Shown here in pieces: positions 38,977-48,777 of a stretch of 64,000 bases of DNA. A program made the position numbers and the translations under genes. The DNA comes from Candidatus Uhrbacteria bacterium. GTDB lineage: Bacteria; Patescibacteriota; Patescibacteriia; JACQRZ01. Each line of letters begins with the position of its first letter. The first letter of the stretch is position 1. The stretch is from positions 7,450 through 71,449 of the forward strand of contig JACQSC010000004.1 in NCBI GenBank assembly GCA_016206155.1. Reading direction: 5' to 3'. The notes under the pieces were generated by a model, which searched no databases, was not told where the DNA came from, and worked only from the letters and a program-made list of their open reading frames with translations.

Positions 38977-39838
38977 AAAAACAACCATTCCTCAGTGGCT
39001 CACCGACATCGGCGAATATCTCAATAAACCGCTTCCGCCGCTTCTCGATATTGATCTGTCCCTTCTTTCGAAGCGGGCACCCGCCCTTGTGATTCCTGAC
39101 GGCATCGCAATCTCGGTTATTATTCCGGCGTGGAATGAAGAGGCATACATTGCGCGAACGCTCGATGCGCTCCACCGCCAAACATTTCCGCGCGACCGGT
39201 ATGAGATCGTAGTTGTCGATAATGTCTGCACCGACCGCACCGCCGATCTTGCGCGCGCATATGGCGCTGACAAAGTTGTCTCTGAGCCATGCAAGGGAAC
39301 AAACTTCGCACGCCAGCGCGGTATCGAAGAAAGCACCGCCGACATCATTGCATTTCTGGACGCCGACTGCGTACCGCCTCCTGAATGGCTTGAGAAAATA
39401 TATACAAAGCTGACCGAAAAAAATCATCGCTGTGCGGCGATTGCAGGATCGTATATCTTCCATGTCAATCCGACTGAATCCCTCTTCCTTGCGCAAGAAA
39501 TCTATCGCTGGATTGTTATGCCCACGATGTCCACGCTCTTTGGTCGACTCTTGGGGCGGGGCGGGGTGATTATTGGCGGCAACTTCGCATCGTTCCGCGA
39601 AAACTTCAATAAAATAAACGGCCTTGACACCTCGTTCACTTTTTTTGGCGACGACGCAAGCATTGCACGCAAATTTGGAGAGATCGGCTTTGTTGAGTTT
39701 GATCCCCTCCTCTACGTCCTGACCTCGACGAGACGCTTTGAGCGTGATGGTCTCCTGAAAACAAACTGGGAGTACGCGCGCAATTATTTTAAAGTCATGT
39801 TCGATGATCATTCACGACCAAAAAGTAAGGCGTCTTGA
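38963..39838 (+). CDS. family 2 glycosyltransferase
   Basis: ISVIIPAWNEE...VVVDNVCTDRT...FLDADC motifs; start set at MPENKK. Confidence 0.8.
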   Translation: MPENKKTTIPQWLTDIGEYLNKPLPPLLDIDLSLLSKRAPALVIPDGIAISVIIPAWNEEAYIARTLDALHRQTFPRDRYEIVVVDNVCTDRTADLARAYGADKVVSEPCKGTNFARQRGIEESTADIIAFLDADCVPPPEWLEKIYTKLTEKNHRCAAIAGSYIFHVNPTESLFLAQEIYRWIVMPTMSTLFGRLLGRGGVIIGGNFASFRENFNKINGLDTSFTFFGDDASIARKFGEIGFVEFDPLLYVLTSTRRFERDGLLKTNWEYARNYFKVMFDDHSRPKSKAS

Positions 39839-40661
39839 GAAGCTTGCAAACTCCATTCGCCGAGACATCATAGCCATGCTCGTAAAGGCTGGATCAGGGC
39901 ACTCGGCCGGCCCCCTGGATATGGCGGATGTCTTTACAGCGCTGTATTTTCATATTCTCCATCACCGACCAAAACAACCTCAGTTGGAGGGACGTGACCG
40001 TCTCGTTCTTTCATGTGGCCACATCTGTCCGGTTCGCTATGCCGCAATGGCACGCGCAGGATATTTCCCGCTCAAAACACTTTCGACCCTCCGCAAGCTC
40101 GGATCACCTCTGCAGGGACACCCAGAGCTTCATAAACTGCGTGCAGTAGAAAATACTAGCGGCCCCCTTGCGCAGGGAACATCGGTGGCGGTCGGCATGG
40201 CGCTTGCCGGAAAAATGGATAACAAAAAATGGCGCGTCTATGGTGTGTTGTCAGACGGCGAACATCAGGAGGGGCAAACATGGGAGGCCGTCATGTTTGC
40301 GGGGAACAAGGGACTCAACAACCTTACCTTCCTTGTCGATCGTAATAATATCCAGATTGACGGCATGACCGAGGAGGTGATGCCCCTAGAGCCGTTTGCC
40401 GACAAGTACCGTGCGTTCAATTGGCATGTCATCGAAATTGACGGCCATAACATTCGAGAGATTGTTGATGCATGTGAACAGGCAAAGCGCATTTACGAAA
40501 AACCAACGGTCATTATCTGTCATACCATTCCCGGCCGCGGCGTTGAATTTATGGAAAAAAAATACGAATGGCACGGCATCCCTCCCAATGAGGAACAAGC
40601 ACAAGAAGCGTTGCGCGATCTCCGCACGTTACGCGGAAAAATTATTTCGGAGCACGAATAA
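39804..40661 (+). CDS. tktA: transketolase, N-terminal (TPP-binding) subunit
   Basis: SGHSAGPL...GHP...GPLAQG..GMA...DGE TPP-binding motifs; 285 aa means a split transketolase. Confidence 0.9.
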   Translation: MIIHDQKVRRLEKLANSIRRDIIAMLVKAGSGHSAGPLDMADVFTALYFHILHHRPKQPQLEGRDRLVLSCGHICPVRYAAMARAGYFPLKTLSTLRKLGSPLQGHPELHKLRAVENTSGPLAQGTSVAVGMALAGKMDNKKWRVYGVLSDGEHQEGQTWEAVMFAGNKGLNNLTFLVDRNNIQIDGMTEEVMPLEPFADKYRAFNWHVIEIDGHNIREIVDACEQAKRIYEKPTVIICHTIPGRGVEFMEKKYEWHGIPPNEEQAQEALRDLRTLRGKIISEHE

Positions 40662-40663
40662 GC

Positions 40664-41014
40664 TTGAACGCTACCATGAAAACGTCAATCCATGCGCCGA
40701 TTGTCATAAATCCGAACGATATCCCGTGGAAAAAAATAGCACCGGGCGTGACAATGAAAGATCTAGCATTCGACAAGCCAAAAAATCAAAGACTCACACT
40801 TTTTAAATTTAATAAGGGAGCGCGACTCAAAACCCACAAGCACTCCGCCCTTGAATGGATGTATGTCCTTGATGGCATCTACCAGGATGAATTTTGCACT
40901 ATACCAAAGGGCAGATTGAAAATCAACAAAAAGGGTTCAATCCACACATCACAACCAAAACGAGGGTGCACCCTCCTTGTGGTATGGAGTGGGAAACATA
41001 TTACTGTGCGATAG
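40664..41014 (+). CDS. cupin domain protein
   Basis: Cupin-like beta-barrel length and His-containing motif (HKHSALEWMYVLDG). Confidence 0.45.
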   Translation: MNATMKTSIHAPIVINPNDIPWKKIAPGVTMKDLAFDKPKNQRLTLFKFNKGARLKTHKHSALEWMYVLDGIYQDEFCTIPKGRLKINKKGSIHTSQPKRGCTLLVVWSGKHITVR

Positions 41015-41025
41015 CGTTAGTGTAT

Positions 41026-42693
41026 ATGAAATTAAAAAAATCAGAGCAGAAAAAAAATGGGGCCGAGCTCCTCGTCGACTGCCTCAAGACGCAGAACGTC
41101 AAATATATCTTTGGCATTCCTGGCGCTGCTGTCATGCCCATCATGGAATCATTACGTGTCAATGAACAGCAGGGCGGCCCCAAGTTTATTATCACGCGCC
41201 ATGAACAAAATGCGGCCTTTATGGCGCAAGCCTGGGGCCGCATCACAGAAACACCGGGAGTCTGTCTGGCAACGGCCGGGCCAGGCGCGACAAATCTTGT
41301 TACGGGTGTTGCAACTGCAACGGCCGATCGCGATCCAATGGTTGCAATTACCGGCGAGACACCCCGAGTAGAACATTTTCAAAAAACTCATCAAACGATC
41401 CGCACCGCTACATTATTTCGCCCAATAGCGAAGTGGAGCGAAGAAATTCAAGACGCCGCGGCAATCCCCGAAGCGGTCTCGCTGGCATTTAGAGCTGCAA
41501 AGCTTCCTCATGAGGGGGCCGTCAATATGACGTTTCCCTTGGACGTGCAGACCTCCCGTGCAAAAGGGATACCCCTTACATCTGAGTCGCCATTGTTCGG
41601 AAAAGCTTCAGCAGAAGAATTACAAACAGCGGCCGAGATTCTTGCTCGCGCGAAACATCCTTGTCTCCTTCTTGGATGCGGTGCAACACGCGCCAAAACC
41701 ACCGGAGCGCTCCGTAGATTTCTTACCAATCATGCGGTGCCGGTCGTTGGTACCTTCGAAGCAGCTGGTGCAATCTCGCGGGATCTTGTCCATCTTTTTG
41801 TTGGACGCGTGGGCCTCAAAGTTGAAGAACCGGGAGATATTGCATTACGCAATGCCGATTGCATCATCACCGTTGGCTTTGATCCGATTGAGTATCACCC
41901 CTCCTTCTGGCACAGCAAGGCAGTACCGATTGTTCATATTGACGAACTTCCCTCAGAGCCCCATACGCTCTACCAACCTGCCGCAGAACTCATGGGTGAT
42001 ACCGCAAAGAACCTTGATTCGCTCTCGGAGCGCGTTACGCGATCGTACCCATTTCACCCTGCGGCAAAAAAAGCTCAGGCCACTATGTTCAAACACATGC
42101 ATCAAGCGGCACCAGGAACAACGGTACACCCGCTAACCTTTATCAATATCCTCCGTGAAAGCATCGACGATACCGTGACGGTATGCTCTGATGTTGGCGC
42201 GCATCAAATCTGGCTTGCAAAACATTTTCTCTCGTACGAACCACGTCATCTTCTTTTTAGCATGGGGTTCCAAACAATGGGCGTGAGCTTACCGTGGGCA
42301 ATTGCGGCAAGTCTGGCTCGCCCCAAAACGCACATCGTCTCACTAAGCGGTGATGGATCGTTTATGATGAGTGCGATGGAGCTGGAAACAGCGGTCCGCC
42401 TTAAACTCCAAATCACGCATATCATTTGGCGCGACGGAAGCTATAACCTCGTAAAAATCCAGCAACAGGAGACGTATAAAAAGACGTATGGTATCTCATT
42501 TGGCAATCCTGATTTTGTTAAGCTTGCTCAAAGCTTCGGCGCACAAGGATTTCGAATAACAAAGCCATCGCAAATACAACGAACACTCAAAAAAGCACTT
42601 TCAATAAAAACACCAGCCGTCATTGATGTTGCGATTGATTATCGGAAAAACCTTTCCCTTCTCCGGCCTTCTGAACTAGCCTCACTTTCATAA
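41026..42693 (+). CDS. thiamine-pyrophosphate enzyme of the acetolactate synthase family
   Basis: N-terminal PYR domain (GIPGAAV...), central domain, GDGSF TPP-binding motif; start set at MKLKKSEQ. Confidence 0.8.
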   Translation: MKLKKSEQKKNGAELLVDCLKTQNVKYIFGIPGAAVMPIMESLRVNEQQGGPKFIITRHEQNAAFMAQAWGRITETPGVCLATAGPGATNLVTGVATATADRDPMVAITGETPRVEHFQKTHQTIRTATLFRPIAKWSEEIQDAAAIPEAVSLAFRAAKLPHEGAVNMTFPLDVQTSRAKGIPLTSESPLFGKASAEELQTAAEILARAKHPCLLLGCGATRAKTTGALRRFLTNHAVPVVGTFEAAGAISRDLVHLFVGRVGLKVEEPGDIALRNADCIITVGFDPIEYHPSFWHSKAVPIVHIDELPSEPHTLYQPAAELMGDTAKNLDSLSERVTRSYPFHPAAKKAQATMFKHMHQAAPGTTVHPLTFINILRESIDDTVTVCSDVGAHQIWLAKHFLSYEPRHLLFSMGFQTMGVSLPWAIAASLARPKTHIVSLSGDGSFMMSAMELETAVRLKLQITHIIWRDGSYNLVKIQQQETYKKTYGISFGNPDFVKLAQSFGAQGFRITKPSQIQRTLKKALSIKTPAVIDVAIDYRKNLSLLRPSELASLS

Positions 42694-42700
42694 TACTGTT

Positions 42701-42728
42701 TGTCATCCCGGCGGAGGCCGGGATCCAG
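42701..42728. repeat. REP-like hairpin (copy 3, reverse-complement orientation)
   Basis: tgtcatcccggcggaggccgggatccag. Confidence 0.85.
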
Positions 42729-42737
42729 CCCAAATAT

Positions 42738-43721
42738 ATGCCCTCTCATTCCACACACCTCAACCCCCACTTGTTTTCTTCAGATGTTGAACAGATTCCG
42801 ACGCGGAATGGCTATGGCGATGGGTTACTTATGCTCGGCGAATCAAATCCGGATGTTGTCGTGTTAACCGGAGACCTTGCAGAATCAACGCGTGTTCTTG
42901 AATTTGGGAAAAAATACCCCGAACGATTCGTTGAATGCGGTGTTGCGGAACAAAATATGGCGGGCATCGCTGCGGGGCTTGCGCTTGCCGGTAAGATTCC
43001 TTTTATTTCAAGCTACGCTGTGTTTTCTCCCGGAAGGAACTGGGATCAGATTCGAGTCAGTACGTGCTTGAATAACGCGAATGTAAAAATCGTCGGTGCG
43101 CATGCGGGCATTTCCGTCGGTCCTGATGGCGCGACCCACCAAGCGCTTGAAGATATTGCCATCATGCGCGTACTCCCTCACATGGTCGTTGTTGTACCAT
43201 GCGATTATCAAGAAACAATGAAAGCAACGTTTGAAGCAGCGGCATGTATTGGACCCTTTTATTTCCGATTTGCTCGAGAGAAAACACCGTGCATCACAAC
43301 GTTAAAAACACCGTTCAAAGTGGGGCGCGCGGAAATCTTTAGAAAGGGAAAAAACGTCAGTATCATTGCGTGCGGTCCACTTGTGTACCAATCTCTTGTC
43401 GCGGCAGAGGAACTTGCCAAGAGTGGCATCGACTGCGAGGTCATCAACAACCACACAATCAAACCACTTGACGAGAAAACGCTACTCGCATCGGTGCGAA
43501 AAACAAAAGCGGTTGTCACCGTTGAAGAACATCAAATCATGGCCGGTGCGGGAAGTGCGGTATGTGAGCTTCTTTGTAAAAAATATCCCGTGCCAGTTGA
43601 AATGGTCGGCATGAACGATTCCTATGGCGAAAGCGGAAAGCCATCCGAACTTCTTGAAAAATACGGTATGTCAGTCAAAGCAATCAAAACCGCTGTTAAA
43701 AAAGTACTGAGAAGAGCATAG
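42738..43721 (+). CDS. tktB: transketolase, C-terminal (pyrimidine-binding plus C-terminal domain) subunit
   Basis: Tkt PYR-domain motifs (ESNPDVVVLTGDL, GVAEQNMAGIAAG) and C-terminal domain. Confidence 0.9.
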   Translation: MPSHSTHLNPHLFSSDVEQIPTRNGYGDGLLMLGESNPDVVVLTGDLAESTRVLEFGKKYPERFVECGVAEQNMAGIAAGLALAGKIPFISSYAVFSPGRNWDQIRVSTCLNNANVKIVGAHAGISVGPDGATHQALEDIAIMRVLPHMVVVVPCDYQETMKATFEAAACIGPFYFRFAREKTPCITTLKTPFKVGRAEIFRKGKNVSIIACGPLVYQSLVAAEELAKSGIDCEVINNHTIKPLDEKTLLASVRKTKAVVTVEEHQIMAGAGSAVCELLCKKYPVPVEMVGMNDSYGESGKPSELLEKYGMSVKAIKTAVKKVLRRA

Positions 43722-43783
43722 CGCCGACTTGACGATTTGGCTGTACATGTATATACTTATGTATATACATTCATCTATCTCAT

Positions 43784-44026
43784 ATGATTCAAAAAATCGA
43801 CCGATGGGGCAATAGCTTAGGTATTCGCCTGCCAAAGCAGCTTGCTGATCAGCTCTTCCTTAATGAAGGAAGTACTGTTGTTGTTACCCTGGAAAAAAAC
43901 GCCCTTATGCTGCGCCCACAAAAGAGAAGCACTCAGACATTAAAACAGCTTCTTGAACACATCACTCCAAACAATCTTCATAAGACCGTGGACTGGGGGG
44001 AGCCGCAGGGAAAGGAGGTATGGTAG
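43784..44026 (+). CDS. mazE: MazE/PemI-like antitoxin (AbrB-type)
   Basis: MIQKIDRWGNSLGIRLPKQL swapped-hairpin motif. Confidence 0.75.
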   Translation: MIQKIDRWGNSLGIRLPKQLADQLFLNEGSTVVVTLEKNALMLRPQKRSTQTLKQLLEHITPNNLHKTVDWGEPQGKEVW

Positions 44027-44361
44027 AGACAACATATACTCCAAGCCGCGGCGACGTTGTTTGGATTAATTTCAATCCAACAAAAGGACGTGAGCAGGGC
44101 GGTTCACGTCCAGCACTCGTTGTTTCTCCTCAATCGTATAACGAACGGGTTGGCTTAATGCTTGCGTGTCCCATAACATCAAAGATAAAAGGATACCCCT
44201 TTGAAGTTGTCATTAGCATCCATGACATCGAGGGCGTGGTACTGGTGGATCACATACGAAGCATTGACTGGGTCTGTCGAAGCGTTAATCTTGTAGGGCG
44301 GTGTGATGAAGAAACACTTGAAGAGGTGAGGCATAAATTAACCGTCCTGATCAATGAATAA
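44020..44361 (+). CDS. mazF: MazF/PemK family endoribonuclease toxin
   Basis: RGDVVWINFNPTKGREQGGSRPALVVS signature. Confidence 0.85.
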   Translation: MVETTYTPSRGDVVWINFNPTKGREQGGSRPALVVSPQSYNERVGLMLACPITSKIKGYPFEVVISIHDIEGVVLVDHIRSIDWVCRSVNLVGRCDEETLEEVRHKLTVLINE

Positions 44362-44443
44362 GCCCGGGTGGTGTAACTGGCAGCCACGTTCGACTTAAGA
44401 TCGAATGCCGTAAGGCGTGCGGGTTCGAGTCCCGCCCCGGGCA
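44362..44443 (+). tRNA. tRNA-Leu (anticodon UAA), type II with long variable arm, no encoded CCA
   Basis: Manual fold: acceptor GCCCGGG/CCCGGGC, 3-bp D-stem, anticodon loop CTTAAGA, variable hairpin GCCG-TAA-GGC, T-loop TTCGAGT. Confidence 0.9.
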
Positions 44444-44593
44444 AATTTGAACGAAGTGAAAAATTGAATGGGGAGCAACAGAACTGCTTCTGTTGCGTCG
44501 GGACGAGAACGCCGGAGCGATGTTCGGCCAGCAGGCCGAACCGCGAGGCGGTGGCTAGACCGAGGTGAGCGACGGCGAGCCGAGAGTCAAAGC

Positions 44594-44614
44594 CGAGTCC
44601 CGCCCCGGGCAAAT
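44594..44614. repeat. 21-bp exact direct repeat of the tRNA-Leu 3' end (att-like)
   Basis: cgagtcccgccccgggcaaat identical to 44426..44446. Confidence 0.85.
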
Positions 44615-44647
44615 GAGAAAGTTTTACTAGACACAATAAGCAAGAAT

Positions 44648-45316
44648 ATGAACAAGATCGTTTTCGCCATTGTTTTATTTACTTTGCTTATCATCCCGTC
44701 CTCGACGACATATGCACAGATAACTGGCGGTGGTTTTGCCACCGATGACCATACTGCCCAAGAAGAAGCGGATGGCAAAGCACTGTGGCGGAAATTGCAA
44801 AATAAAGAAACTGATTGTGCGAGTTTATCGGATGATGATTTCGGTGCCGTGGGGGAATATTTTATGGGACAGATGATGGGTAATGCTCATCCGGCAATGA
44901 ACCGGATGATGGTAGCTATGGTTGGCGAAGATGGGGAAGAGCAAATACATATCGTTATGGGCGAACGTTTGAGCTGCTGCGATACATCGGCGATAGTTCC
45001 ATCGCAAGCAATAGGATTTATGCCGATGATGTCTATGATGATGGGGGGATGGTCGTCTCCTTTTAATAATAATTCAACAAGCAATATGATGAACTTTGGG
45101 TTTGGGTCTTTTGGTTCTTTTGGATTTATTTTTATGATTCTCTGGTGGGTTCTGATCATCGTCGGTATTGTCGCGCTTATCAAATGGCTCACGAATCAGT
45201 CGCGCTCCACTCGCGATCAGAAAAAATCAGCGCTTGACATTCTGAAAGAACGATATGCTCGCGGCGAGATAGATAAAAAGGAATTTGAACAAAAGAAAAA
45301 GGATTTGAGTTTATAA
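44648..45316 (+). CDS. Met-rich membrane protein with C-terminal SHOCT domain (putative metal/copper-binding)
   Basis: Signal peptide MNKIVFAIVLFTLLIIPSS, Met-rich motifs (MGQMMGNAHPAMNRMMVAM, MPMMSMMMGGW), TM helix, SHOCT-like ALDILKERYARGEIDKKEFEQKKKDL. Confidence 0.6.
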   Translation: MNKIVFAIVLFTLLIIPSSTTYAQITGGGFATDDHTAQEEADGKALWRKLQNKETDCASLSDDDFGAVGEYFMGQMMGNAHPAMNRMMVAMVGEDGEEQIHIVMGERLSCCDTSAIVPSQAIGFMPMMSMMMGGWSSPFNNNSTSNMMNFGFGSFGSFGFIFMILWWVLIIVGIVALIKWLTNQSRSTRDQKKSALDILKERYARGEIDKKEFEQKKKDLSL

Positions 45317-45435
45317 AAAAGAAACAGCGGTATGCCCAATTTCAACAATGGCAGATTTGCTCAAAATGGTTGAGGAGAGCGATAAGGTGTTGGTTTTTTG
45401 ATTGGCGTTGCCCGCCGATTGCCCATGAGTGAAAA

Positions 45436-45476
45436 AGGGTTCGAGTTCCGCCCTGGCAAATTTGAACAAAGTGAAA
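45436..45476. repeat. degenerate copy (about 38 of 42 nt) of the tRNA-Leu 3' end plus its 20-nt native downstream flank
   Basis: gggttcgagttccgccctggcaaatttgaacaaagtgaaaa compared with 44421..44462. Confidence 0.75.
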
Positions 45477-45487
45477 ACGGAATAAAC

Positions 45488-46525
45488 ATGAACTACATAA
45501 AACCACAACGATTAAAAGAAGGCGATACGGTTGCGATCGTGTCGCCATCGTGGGGAGGACCAAGCGTTTTTCCGGCTGTATACGAACATGGTCTCAAGGT
45601 TTTACTGGCATGGGGATTGAATATTAAGGAGTTCCCTACTGCAAGAATGGATGCCGCCTTTCTGCGGAATAATCCGCGCATTCGCGCACAGGATATAAAC
45701 GACGCTTTTGCCGACACCGAAGTTAAAGCAATTTTCGCCTCCATCGGCGGTGATGATTCCGTTCGGATTTTGCCCTTTTTAGATAAAAAAATTATCGCGA
45801 GTAATCCTAAAATACTGATGGGCTATTCCGACACCTCAACGCTTCATGTTTTTGCAAACCTCCAAGGATTGGCGAGTTTCTACGGTCCCTCAATCATGGC
45901 TGGTTTCTCACAAATGAATAATTTGCCAGTAAGCTTTAAGAACCACGTGAGGGAAATGCTCTTTGAGCCAAAAGAATACTATGAGTATAAGCCGTATCAA
46001 ACATATTGCGATGGCTATCCCGATTGGGCGAATAAAGAAAATCTTGGAAAAGTTAATCCGATGAAGGCAGATGACGGTTGGCACTGGCTCCAAGGAAAAG
46101 CAACGGTTCAAGGAGAGTTATTTGGTGGCTGTATTGAAGTTTTTGAGATGATGAAAGCAACCGAGTTTTGGCCAGCACAGGAATTTTGGAAGGATAAAAT
46201 ATTTTTTCTCGAAACGTCTGAAGAAAAACCGTCAATCCATTATATTGATCACGTGCTGAGAAATTACGGAATGTTGGGTGTGTATGATACCATTAGCGGT
46301 TTCATTTTCTCGCGCGCTAGAGATTATTCGGATGAAGAAAAGAAAGAACTGGAAGAAAAAATAGCTTCAATAATCGCGAATGAGTTTGGAAAACCGGATC
46401 TATCGATTATCGCAAACTTTGATGTCGGGCATACCGACCCTCAAGTGGTATTGCCGCTTGGAGTGAAGGCGGAAATTGATTGTGAGACAAAAAAAATACG
46501 CCTCGTAGAATCCTGGCTGCAGTGA
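45488..46525 (+). CDS. LD-carboxypeptidase (peptidase S66, LdcA/MccF-like)
   Basis: GYSDTSTLH nucleophile motif, S66 length and C-terminal His/Glu region. Confidence 0.85.
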   Translation: MNYIKPQRLKEGDTVAIVSPSWGGPSVFPAVYEHGLKVLLAWGLNIKEFPTARMDAAFLRNNPRIRAQDINDAFADTEVKAIFASIGGDDSVRILPFLDKKIIASNPKILMGYSDTSTLHVFANLQGLASFYGPSIMAGFSQMNNLPVSFKNHVREMLFEPKEYYEYKPYQTYCDGYPDWANKENLGKVNPMKADDGWHWLQGKATVQGELFGGCIEVFEMMKATEFWPAQEFWKDKIFFLETSEEKPSIHYIDHVLRNYGMLGVYDTISGFIFSRARDYSDEEKKELEEKIASIIANEFGKPDLSIIANFDVGHTDPQVVLPLGVKAEIDCETKKIRLVESWLQ

Positions 46526-46600: not shown

Positions 46601-47290
46601 ATGCGAAAAATATATTTTCAATACTGCGTTGTTTTTCTTTGTGGCGCGATTGTTGGCAGTGTCCTCATCACGCGATTGCCAAACAGAGCGGCGCCAGCAC
46701 CCGCGCCGAAACCGTCAATTGAAAAAATAACTTTGCCCATTCAAGCATCCGCAAAACGCATTCCTCAAAAAGATAACGTTTCGACATCGCATCAAGATAT
46801 CAAAAAAAGTACAGTCGCAGCTGCAATAGAATCGACTAAGCCCTTCACGCAAGCCTCCCAATACTTCCATGTAACGAAAGTGATCGATGGCGACACCTTC
46901 GATGTTCTCATTAATGGAACCACCGAACGCATTCGACCAATCGGCATAGACTCTCCCGAAACGGTCGATACAAGAAAAACAGTTGAATGTTTTGGCAAAG
47001 AGGCATCAAAAAAAACAACCGAACTTCTCCTCTATAAAAATGTGCGCCTTGAAAAAGATCCAGCGCAAGAAGACCGAGATATCTATGGGCGGCTCCTTCG
47101 CTATGTCTATCGTGATGACGGCCTTTTTTTCAACCAATGGATGATTGAAAATGGCTATGCGCATGAATATACCTACAAAACGCCTTACGCATTTCAAAAA
47201 AAATTCAAAGATGCGCAAACATCTGCGCGAGAACAGGAAAAAGGACTGTGGACGCCCAATGCATGCGCTCCTTCCGGCGACTTGCCGTAA
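46601..47290 (+). CDS. thermonuclease (staphylococcal nuclease homolog), membrane-anchored
   Basis: VIDGDTFDV...RPIGIDSPE...YGRLLRYVY SNase motifs; N-terminal TM. Confidence 0.85.
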   Translation: MRKIYFQYCVVFLCGAIVGSVLITRLPNRAAPAPAPKPSIEKITLPIQASAKRIPQKDNVSTSHQDIKKSTVAAAIESTKPFTQASQYFHVTKVIDGDTFDVLINGTTERIRPIGIDSPETVDTRKTVECFGKEASKKTTELLLYKNVRLEKDPAQEDRDIYGRLLRYVYRDDGLFFNQWMIENGYAHEYTYKTPYAFQKKFKDAQTSAREQEKGLWTPNACAPSGDLP

Positions 47291-47346: not shown

Positions 47347-48777
47347 ATGGCATTCCTAAAAAAAGACCTTCCAAAAAAATCAGAAAATCTCTCCGACTGG
47401 TATAACAATATTGTTCTGCGCGCAGAGCTTGCCGACTATGGTCCGGCAAAGGGAACGATGATCTATCGTCCTTACGGCTTTGCCATCTGGGAGCTGATTC
47501 AAAAGGAAATGGATGCGATGATTAAGGAGAGGGGCGTATCAAACGCCTACTTCCCCCTCTTCATTCCAGAATCGCTACTCAAGAAGGAAGAAGCGCACGT
47601 TGAAGGATTCTCCCCAGAATTGGCTGTTGTCACCATCGGTGGCGGAGAAGAACTCAAAGAAAAACTTATCGTCCGCCCCACCAGCGAAACAATTATGTAC
47701 GATGCATACAGCCGCTGGATTCACTCATGGCGCGACCTTCCATTGATGATCAATCAGTGGAACAACGTGGTTCGCTGGGAAAAAAGAAGCTATCTCTTCT
47801 TGCGCACAACGGAATTTCTCTGGCAAGAAGGCCATACCGCACACGCAACCCATGAAGAAGCATGGGAGATGGTCGAATGGGCGATGAAAATGTACGAGAA
47901 GGTGTATCGCGACCTCTTTGCAATGCCCGGATATATTGGCAGAAAATCCGAGTCGGAAAAATTTGCCGGCGCGGATGTCACACTCACATACGAAGCGCTG
48001 ATGCCGGAGGGCAAAGCATTGCAGTCATGCACGTCGCACGATCTTGGACAAAATTTTTCAAAGCCGTTTGAAATTACCTACCAAAGCGACAAAGGAGTAA
48101 ATGAATATGCGTGGCAAACAAGTTGGGGGCTCTCTACCCGCTCAATCGGCGGCATGATTATGGCCCATGGCGATGATGGCGGTTTGCGACTACCACCACG
48201 GCTTGCGCCAATTCAGGTTATCATTCTTCCGATCAAAGTAAGTGAGGAGTTAATCGCCACCGCAAAAGATATTGGCGACGATTTGAAAAAAGCAGGCATC
48301 AGAACGTTGGTTGATGCGGCGGACAATGAGACCATCGGTTTTCGCATCAATAAATGGGAATTGAAGGGCGTGCCGCTCCGTCTTGAAATTGGCCCAAAAG
48401 AACTCGAGAAGCGCGTCATCACCGTCGTGCGCCGCGATACTGGCGAGAAGACGCAATTACCAATTAAGGGTCTTGAAAAAAGTATTGCCGAAATGCTCGA
48501 TGCAATACAGGCAAATATTTTTGCTGAGGCAGAGCGGTTTCTTAAAGAGAATACGCATGCCACAACAGACTACAAAACATTCAAAGAGGTCATGAAAAAA
48601 TCGCGTGGCTTTATCTCCGCCCCGTGGTGTGAAAACGCGGTGTGTGAGGCGAAAATAAAAGAAGAGACAAAGGCATCAACACGCTGTGTCCCGCTTGACG
48701 GGAGGGAAGAGGACGGCTCGTGCATTGCATGCAACAACCCCGCAAAACTCCGCTGGTACTTTGCGCAAAGCTACTAA
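47347..48777 (+). CDS. proS: proline--tRNA ligase, archaeal/eukaryotic type
   Basis: Class II motifs, about 476 aa, characteristic C-terminal zinc-binding domain ending ...WYFAQSY. Confidence 0.9.
   Translation: MAFLKKDLPKKSENLSDWYNNIVLRAELADYGPAKGTMIYRPYGFAIWELIQKEMDAMIKERGVSNAYFPLFIPESLLKKEEAHVEGFSPELAVVTIGGGEELKEKLIVRPTSETIMYDAYSRWIHSWRDLPLMINQWNNVVRWEKRSYLFLRTTEFLWQEGHTAHATHEEAWEMVEWAMKMYEKVYRDLFAMPGYIGRKSESEKFAGADVTLTYEALMPEGKALQSCTSHDLGQNFSKPFEITYQSDKGVNEYAWQTSWGLSTRSIGGMIMAHGDDGGLRLPPRLAPIQVIILPIKVSEELIATAKDIGDDLKKAGIRTLVDAADNETIGFRINKWELKGVPLRLEIGPKELEKRVITVVRRDTGEKTQLPIKGLEKSIAEMLDAIQANIFAEAERFLKENTHATTDYKTFKEVMKKSRGFISAPWCENAVCEAKIKEETKASTRCVPLDGREEDGSCIACNNPAKLRWYFAQSY

Follow-up and report, generated by a model that had tools for sequence, protein, structure and literature searches.

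A tRNA-Leu(UAA) gene with repeated 3' ends as a possible recombination hotspot in Candidatus Uhrbacteria

tRNA genes are well-known hotspots of integration, and a copy of a tRNA 3' end lying downstream of its gene raises the question of whether it is an attachment-site scar or something else. This question is posed by the tRNA-Leu(UAA) gene on contig JACQSC010000004.1 of Candidatus Uhrbacteria, a member of the Candidate Phyla Radiation (CPR), of which a stretch of 64 kb, called the window in the following, was analysed. The preliminary description of this window had interpreted two downstream repeats of the tRNA 3' end as att scars of at least two sequential integration or deletion events, bracketing an eroded island. 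The analysis reported here suggests, with about an even chance of being correct, that the locus is a tRNA-Leu(UAA)-anchored recombination hotspot in which the three copies of the 3' end differ in age and meaning. The att-type character of the repeats, the eroded state of the cargo, and the variability of the interval are retained from the earlier interpretation, whereas the first of the two downstream repeats turned out to be conserved in a relative and searches of the interval and of the 39 scanned open reading frames (ORFs) of the window revealed no recombinase. The repeats and the features between them are as follows.

44362-44443, + strand: functional tRNA-Leu(UAA) gene, called as tRNA-Leu(taa) by ARAGORN and scored with 53.1 bits by the Rfam tRNA model; CCA is not encoded.
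44444-45487: interval of 1044 bp that holds the downstream copies and consists of trailer T1, a GC-rich element, a 36-nt spacer, a SHOCT gene, a dsrE remnant, a 35-nt spacer, copy 3 with trailer T3, and 10 nt that lead to the ATG of an S66 peptidase gene.
44444-44468, + strand: trailer T1, 25 nt, AATTTGAACGAAGTGAAAAATTGAA, kept in the related contig L102 and present again behind copy 3 (repeat families D1 and D3).
44469-44611, + strand: GC-rich element of about 145 nt that follows the tRNA and the 25-nt trailer and has copy 2 (44594-44614) as its 3' end.
45437-45477, + strand: copy 3, degenerate, GGGTTCGAGTTCCGCCC-TGGCAAATTTGAACAAAGTGAAAAC, comprising a decayed T-arm, the acceptor 3' strand, and trailer T3.
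45428-45436 and 44455-44463, + strand: 9-mer AGTGAAAAA, which directly precedes copy 3 and also ends trailer T1.

The 21-mer CGAGTCCCGCCCCGGGCAAAT reaches from position C56 in the T-loop to 3 nt beyond the discriminator. It occurs exactly twice in the window, at 44426-44446 (copy 1) and 44594-44614 (copy 2), and was absent from all of 100 dinucleotide-preserving shuffles. Copy 3 is about 88% identical to 44420-44468, starts with the T-stem 5' strand (GGGTTCGAG), and carries the native 20-nt trailer, in which both of the changes described earlier (g>a and a>c) were confirmed. Compared to the tRNA, it has one C>T exchange in the T-stem strand as well as one C>T exchange and a 1-nt deletion in the acceptor strand. 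Since neither the T stem nor the acceptor stem would remain intact with these mutations, copy 3 is predicted to be non-functional as a tRNA end. The left borders of the repeats lie in or near the T-loop. Thus, the exact recurrence of the 21-mer and the mutated third copy with its trailer are present as described at the outset, and the proposed search for more 21-mers led to no others in the window; further 3'-end copies were not found there even when 3-5 errors were allowed. A fourth degenerate copy that had been considered at 45394-45436 is not significant (p about 0.26).

The tRNA-Leu gene is one of three tRNA genes in the window, and among 134 tRNAs from the window and all other sequences compared, a tRNA's own 3' end recurs within 1.5 kb downstream only here and in L086, an independent Logan contig of the same organism from another sample, which is 99.85% identical and has the same arrangement from 44013 to 45364. 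L102 was cut off at a contig end in this test. The single other match, in L060, lies inside the adjacent gene of a tandem tRNA pair. The whole tRNA-Leu sequence had no match among 185,579 species genomes, so no species representative in that collection has it.

Copy 2 forms the end of a stretch that differs from its surroundings in composition and folding. The G+C content of 44475-44624 is 64% compared to about 45% in the flanks, and the fold of 44444-44614 has a minimum free energy (MFE) of -75.8 kcal/mol (z = -5.3) with the following predicted helices.

44469-73 with 44603-07: helix P1, (U/C)GGGG with CCCCG.
44475-96: hairpin P2, 9 bp.
44499-504 with 44597-602: helix P3, CGGGAC with (G/A)UCCCG.
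44510-50: hairpin P4, long and irregular, around GUUCGGC.
44552-95: hairpin P5, an extra hairpin specific for the window.

A homologous element is present at the corresponding position in L102, the JGI lake metagenome contig Ga0172370_10016893 of a second Uhrbacteria lineage, which encodes a MazF that is 73% identical to the one in the window. Homologs of the trailer and of the GC-rich element follow the tRNA-Leu gene of this contig; the element likewise ends in the tRNA 3' strand (...GCGCGAATCCCGCCCCGGGC), and the left border of the second 3'-end copy is identical in both sequences (CGA.TCCCGCC). Independent MFE folds of the two elements have the same P1/P2/P3/P4 layout. In a consensus fold of both, all cells of 31 pairs are paired (100%), compared to 28-47% in slid controls, and four pairs, including three in P2, have substitutions on both sides; these values are based on two sequences. 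Several of the consensus pairs are G-U pairs only when read on the + strand. With 77-80% nucleotide identity between the window and L102, the element appears to be at least as conserved as the neighbouring genes (mazE 70%, mazF 72%, the C-terminal transketolase gene tktC 75%) and above the neutral level for non-coding DNA, the spacer between tkt and mazE being 66% identical. The retention of copy 2 and the element in a relative with 70-75% identity in the flanks, together with the compensatory changes, argues that copy 2 is the 3' terminus of an old, maintained element and not a recent scar. The preliminary description, which had interpreted copy 2 as an att scar, had itself named conservation of the configuration in distant relatives as evidence to the contrary, and L102 has the same order of tRNA, trailer, element, and 3'-end copy beside flanking genes of 70-75% identity.

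The element could not be assigned to a known class. No Rfam family (tRNA, tmRNA, YrlA, SRP, 6S, retron msr, and others) was detected in 44440-44650 at E<=10, and the Rfam scan of L102 returned only the tRNA itself and sub-threshold noise over it. A second tRNA, an intron-containing tRNA, or a tmRNA in 44300-45600 was ruled out, as relaxed ARAGORN searches made no credible call. A covariance model of the element, R1, found no additional copy in the window and 61 loci. Matches of the element to phage and plasmid collections were at chance level, and two patterns of its conserved blocks had no match in IMG/VR. The hairpin GTTCGGCC...GGCCGAAC was rejected by eye as an integron attC site because the order of its GTT and AAC boxes is the reverse of that in attC. 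A reading of the element as a guide RNA was set aside since no TnpB, IscB, or Cas12 domain is encoded in the 39 ORFs. The element is thus conserved and unclassified, and it is possibly a new RNA element.

In addition to the SHOCT gene, which was the only gene assigned to the interval in the preliminary description, the segment between copies 2 and 3 holds a gene remnant.

44648-45316, + strand: SHOCT gene, encoding a secreted, Met-rich membrane protein of 222 amino acids with a C-terminal SHOCT domain (Pfam E=2e-9).
45315-45401, + strand: dsrE 3' remnant of 87 bp, 28 codons and a stop, KKETAVCPISTMADLLKMVEESDKVLVF*.

The SHOCT protein has 1969 homologs, and those with a named source are all from CPR or unclassified bacteria. 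For one of them, P0160 (65% identical), which is the only homolog whose gene context was retrieved, the gene order is rpmG-SHOCT-(DUF2061)-DsrE. The remnant is 82% identical at the nucleotide level to the last 82 bp of DsrE genes located behind SHOCT homologs on other CPR contigs (L087-L096), and the downstream gene in L090 was confirmed as DsrE by Pfam. A deletion has joined it to the SHOCT stop codon. Judging from this synteny, the cargo is a truncated SHOCT-DsrE operon known from other CPR, forming a block of about 0.85 kb that is bounded by copy 3. Accordingly, the earlier view of an eroded content was right, but the interval does not carry the SHOCT gene only, as it also contains the GC-rich structured stretch of 130 nt and the 87-bp remnant.

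Comparison with relatives, whose loci were found using prolyl-tRNA synthetase (ProRS) and MazF as anchors, places this segment in a larger variable region. The core synteny consists of transketolase, mazEF, tRNA-Leu, a variable interval, and ProRS. The flanks and the distal genes of the window are as follows.

42738-43721: C-terminal half of transketolase (Pfam).
43784-44026, + strand: mazE (Pfam MazE_antitoxin, E=3.6e-12).
44020-44361, + strand: mazF (Pfam PemK_toxin, E=1.8e-27).
45488-46525, + strand: S66 LD-carboxypeptidase, MccF-like (Pfam).
46601-47290, + strand: secreted SNase-type nuclease (Pfam).
47347-48777, + strand: ProRS (Pfam), the conserved right flank of the variable interval.

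The interval from tRNA-Leu to ProRS differs in every lineage in which it can be read. The following states are found in relatives.

L004: 237 bp after tRNA-Leu, then ProRS.
L005: a hypothetical gene, an EamA transporter, and a HAD hydrolase after tRNA-Leu, with ProRS 2.4 kb away.
L085 and L097-L100: a 242-amino-acid protein with a weak Peptidase_C39_2 match and two HAD genes after tRNA-Leu; the distance to ProRS is 2.2 kb in L085.
L106, 678-927: tRNA-Leu absent, with a HAD hydrolase pseudogene fragment between mazF and ProRS.

The nearest relatives are still distant (best ProRS about 78%, best MazF 79% identity), and a clean empty site with trailer T3 followed by the S66 gene was not found among them. 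Conservation upstream of ProRS stops within a few nucleotides of its ATG, which argues that the S66 and nuclease genes also belong to the variable part. Both genes are missing from the interval in L004, L005, L085, and L106, and they are further non-syntenic, acquired cargo extending up to ProRS at 47347. Copy 3 is therefore not the end of the variable region, as which it had been regarded. Proteins labelled Wolfe-, Giovannoni-, and Uhrbacteria or Minisyncoccota share 79-84% identity with the S66 protein, and one labelled Gracilibacteria shares 76%. Homologs of the S66 protein are found in unrelated gene contexts, and its 79-84% identity across several CPR classes exceeds that of ProRS between the closest relatives. 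The gene looks like a frequently transferred immunity-type gene. In L001 (5850-7038), an S66 gene is again located directly 3' of a tRNA gene, here tRNA-Ile(UAU), and in L003 (3620-7038), it adjoins ThiF-like and nitroreductase-like genes.

The left flank is conserved. In every lineage that keeps the tRNA, the mazF stop codon abuts the first base of tRNA-Leu (44359-44362 in the window). The order mazEF-tRNA is also present in L004, L005, L085, L097-L105, and L107, and L106 has kept mazEF and lost the tRNA. MazEF, which had been mentioned as lying immediately 5' of the tRNA, is thus part of the conserved core at this position in all relatives and does not belong to an island. In 43600-45700, the only promoter-like site outside coding sequences lies upstream of mazE, at 43729-43757, two others being located inside the SHOCT gene, and from mazE to the SHOCT start codon, the same scan detected nothing resembling a promoter or a terminator. 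The abutting mazF stop codon and the single non-coding promoter-like site suggest that mazEF and tRNA-Leu are co-transcribed. MazF homologs in viral contigs are distant paralogs only, with 49% identity or less. Further upstream, a gene for a thiamine pyrophosphate-dependent, acetolactate synthase-like protein (40894-42693) lies between the split transketolase halves (39804-40661 and 42738-43721). The same gene, together with a cupin gene, lies between the halves in L097 and L098, and the halves are adjacent in L102 and L107. A dispersed GC-rich palindrome of the type GTCATCCCGGCGGAGGCCGGGATCCAG, resembling repetitive extragenic palindromic (REP) sequences, is found at 42703-42729 in the window, in L004 (~830-905), and in L106 (~870-925). 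It recurs upstream of ProRS in relatives and translates to artefact ORFs resembling 'GWIPASAGMT'.

In some relatives, the tRNA-Leu gene itself is affected. In L101 (1870-2790), three inserted parts interrupt the old tRNA-Leu gene: a linker, a new tRNA-Leu(UAA) whose acceptor stem differs (gccgcgg), and a LAGLIDADG ORF (Pfam LAGLIDADG_1, 40.1 bits; LAGLIDADG_3, 34.3 bits). An 11-nt 5' relic of the old tRNA directly follows the mazF stop, and a 3' relic of 12-13 nt, ACCGCCCCGGGTA, is followed by the native trailer and the next gene as in L085. L004 (582-709) and L005 (2219-2347) have kept the 5' relic and the new tRNA and have lost the endonuclease. L102 (6701-7549) and L104 (829-1785), which are haplotypes from the same lake metagenome series, are 100% identical over about 650 bp including mazE and mazF up to nucleotide ~11 of the tRNA. 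Beyond this nucleotide, the two sequences diverge in the D and anticodon arms, match fully once more between the variable arm and the 3' end, and show no relationship downstream of the gene. In L104, CCA is encoded and a different GC-rich stretch follows, which ends in CCCGGCACCA, a near-copy of its own tRNA 3' end. In three independent assemblies, the contig stops at or within the 3' end of tRNA-Leu or the copy downstream of it (L103 at 1950, L107 at 3476, L102 at 7549), which would fit strains that begin to differ exactly there. These contig ends and the breakpoints between L102 and L104 argue that the tRNA-Leu gene itself is a recombination breakpoint in natural populations.

An agent of such recombination was sought in the window and in viral sequences. 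No integrase, excisionase, or transposase was detected by Pfam among the 39 window ORFs, which had housekeeping or other unrelated domains or no match. The search for traces of an integrase or excisionase that had been proposed at the beginning was likewise negative: no integrase pseudogene fits into 44444-45487, where every base is assigned and no room is left. The 21-mer is absent from 2.9 million viral contigs. The 22-mer without trailer matches only tRNA genes in viral contigs or attP fragments of the anticodon-loop type with unrelated flanks. Nine IMG/VR contigs contain partial tRNA-Leu(UAA) 3' halves, from the anticodon loop to the 3' end, with the same 22-nt end; these have the classical attP form, which argues that phage targeting of this tRNA 3' end is realistic.

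From these observations, the following order of events can be proposed. The GC-rich element would probably have arisen from an old insertion or duplication at T-loop position C56, an att-type junction, and would then have been retained. It may be transcribed together with mazEF and tRNA-Leu from the mazE promoter as a structured RNA. In this RNA, P3 stacked on P1 would form closing helices of 11-12 bp with a short 3' overhang, derived from the duplicated T-stem and acceptor 3' strand, and enzymes acting on tRNA 3' ends could use this tRNA-like minihelix end to cut the RNA free of the downstream sequence. The SHOCT-(DUF2061)-DsrE operon of about 0.85 kb would have been inserted later by recombination within the tRNA-3'-end sequence, either by a tyrosine-integrase-type reaction in trans or driven by homology. 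Copy 3, whose geometry looks like that expected after recombination inside the tRNA 3' region, would be the tRNA 3' end displaced to the far border of the SHOCT block and left to decay. Subsequently, all of the operon from the SHOCT stop to the final 87 bp of dsrE would have been lost, and the S66 peptidase and nuclease genes may have been acquired as additional cargo. A bolder version, which should be taken as a speculation that is probably wrong, is that the element represents a new class of tRNA-linked structured RNA in CPR with a 3' end mimicking an acceptor/T minihelix, and that it is one of several competing self-propagating cassettes that replace the resident tRNA-Leu(UAA), others carrying a LAGLIDADG endonuclease.

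Several observations weigh against the proposed hotspot with copies of different age. The element is represented by no more than two independent sequences, of which that of L102 is truncated within copy 2 by the end of the contig. The helices that involve the tRNA-like copy, P1 and P3, are invariant and show no covariation, so they are based on energy prediction alone. The shuffle control is weak (35/500, with two sequences), the fold of L102 alone is unexceptional (z = -1.6), and the minus strand folds well too (z = -4.1 and -2.7). Since both strands fold well, folding energy decides neither the strand nor the question of RNA versus DNA. A recombinase, an element bearing attP, and an empty-site allele were not found in the window ORFs, viral contigs, and relatives, respectively. 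The 9-mer AGTGAAAAA ahead of copy 3, which occurs only 4 times on the + strand of the 64 kb, is not accounted for. Together with AGTGAAAA, which ends trailer T3 at 45470-45477, it produces a 42-nt periodicity around copy 3. Its origin as a 9-bp target duplication from an insertion of 44464-45436 was ruled out, because the junction of T1 and the GC-rich element already exists in L102. Finally, T3 is 88% identical to T1 of the same genome and T1 is only 75% identical between the window and L102, so the proposed order of events is not fully explanatory.

These points leave room for other explanations. Two integrase-mediated integrations could have left the tRNA as attL, copy 2 as an internal att site, and copy 3 as attR. 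The 147 bp between copies 1 and 2 would then be the stump of a decayed element similar to a cis-mobilizable element (CIME), and the SHOCT block would be a second eroded element. The repeat borders in or next to the T-loop would fit this explanation, as tyrosine integrases of the T-loop sublocation class reportedly cross over in the T-loop region of tRNA genes. It would also agree with the sharp edges of the exact 21-nt identity block in copy 2, with the variable interval among relatives, with the use of the same tRNA 3' end as attP by phages elsewhere, and with the contigs of several samples that break at this end. However, neither a recombinase gene nor a pseudogene is found in the places searched, and the 21-mer does not occur in the viral contigs. 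In addition, a lineage that is 25-30% diverged has retained the presumed stump with compensatory changes, which is not expected for a neutral scar, and the host trailer T3 has a homolog in T1, which would lie inside the presumed element. This explanation is rather unlikely.

Alternatively, copies 2 and 3 could be relic 3' ends of earlier tRNA-Leu alleles that were displaced by cassettes with their own tRNA-Leu, through double-strand-break repair or homing as in the relatives with a tRNA gene split by a LAGLIDADG cassette. The split gene of L101 with its 5' relic, new tRNA, LAGLIDADG ORF, and 3' relic with native trailer speaks for this model, L004 and L005 retain the 5' relic and the new tRNA without the endonuclease, and the identity of L102 and L104 ends at tRNA nucleotide ~11 after 650 bp. 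Nevertheless, such a replacement is improbable for the window, which has neither an endonuclease gene nor a 5' relic, the tRNA starting at the mazF stop; its GC-rich element has no similarity to the L101 cassette, and the near-duplicates T1 and T3 in one genome are not predicted by successive foreign alleles. A purely local origin, in which slippage or a template switch in the course of replication or repair produced the copies and homologous replacement between the mazF/tRNA and ProRS flanks brought in the cargo, is highly improbable. It would explain the 42-nt periodicity AGTGAAAA...AGTGAAAA around copy 3 and the 9-mer shared by the region before copy 3 and the end of T1, and replacement of the whole interval between conserved flanks is observed in relatives. 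But it leaves unexplained why both extra copies start in the T-arm and why copy 2 and the element are conserved in L102, and the fourth copy in 45394-45436 that a tandem duplication predicts is unsupported.

The reading as a tRNA-Leu(UAA)-anchored hotspot with copies of different ages would have consequences beyond this locus. A tRNA-anchored variable region with 3'-end repeats is a known general phenomenon, and it is the conserved element outside the known classes and, in relatives, the tRNA replacement borne by an endonuclease cassette that merit further work. To our knowledge, very little is known about the mechanism of gene flux in the tiny genomes of CPR/Patescibacteria, and nothing specific was found in the literature on tRNA-targeting islands in CPR. 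A hotspot of this kind, with no recombinase detected among the scanned window ORFs nearby, would be of interest for gene flux in these bacteria. One tRNA-Leu site exists in at least four states in related Uhrbacteria: with a resident structured element, with a second GC-rich variant, with plain cargo, and with an endonuclease-borne replacement tRNA. If the element is a real RNA with a tRNA-like minihelix end, it would be a new motif, and the locus would offer a testable case of tRNA-processing enzymes punctuating an operon that extends from a toxin-antitoxin pair via a tRNA to cargo genes. If competing cassettes are indeed involved, an essential tRNA gene would be both battleground and vehicle of selfish elements in reduced genomes.

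The locus shares traits with several known systems. As in tRNA-targeting islands and prophages, there are direct repeats of the 3' part of a tRNA, left borders in the T-arm, a decaying distal copy with the native trailer, and a variable interval, and in viral contigs this 3' end of tRNA-Leu(UAA) serves as an attP target. Unlike in such islands, no integrase or excisionase is present, the cargo of about 1 kb is the remnant of an ordinary CPR operon, and the inner repeat lies in a conserved structured element. The ICESt1/ICESt3 family of Streptococcus provides examples of CIMEs and of tandem accretion at att sites. CIMEs are likewise integrase-less segments with att-type repeats that are arranged in tandem beside the target gene. 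The 147-bp unit of the window is far smaller and shows signs of selection on secondary structure, and no cognate integrase-bearing element with the same core was found in the sequences searched. Among free-standing LAGLIDADG homing cassettes, the one in L101 leaves a downstream 3' relic with native trailer in the same geometry as copy 3; the window, by comparison, contains neither an endonuclease gene nor a 5' relic and is not similar to this cassette in sequence. The omega RNAs of TnpB/IscB and the guides of Cas12 have a similar architecture, with a scaffold of ~130 nt and ~21 nt identical to a nearby genomic target. Unlike in these systems, the window encodes no RNA-guided nuclease or transposase, and the putative guide is predicted to be base-paired inside the element. 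In contrast to tRNA-like or tRNA-linked non-coding RNAs, the element matches no Rfam family at E<=10 and is not called as tRNA or tmRNA by ARAGORN; it differs from a tRNA in that it has no canonical T-loop and its helix register is shifted by 3 nt. YrlA, the tRNA-like domain of tmRNA, mascRNA, and 3'ETS-leuZ are examples of this group, to which the candidate RNA described here is similar in its physical linkage to a tRNA gene and in its 3' strand resembling that of the T-stem and acceptor. The 3'ETS-leuZ of E. coli lies in the 3' trailer of a tRNA-Leu(UAA), and the element of the window has the same position.

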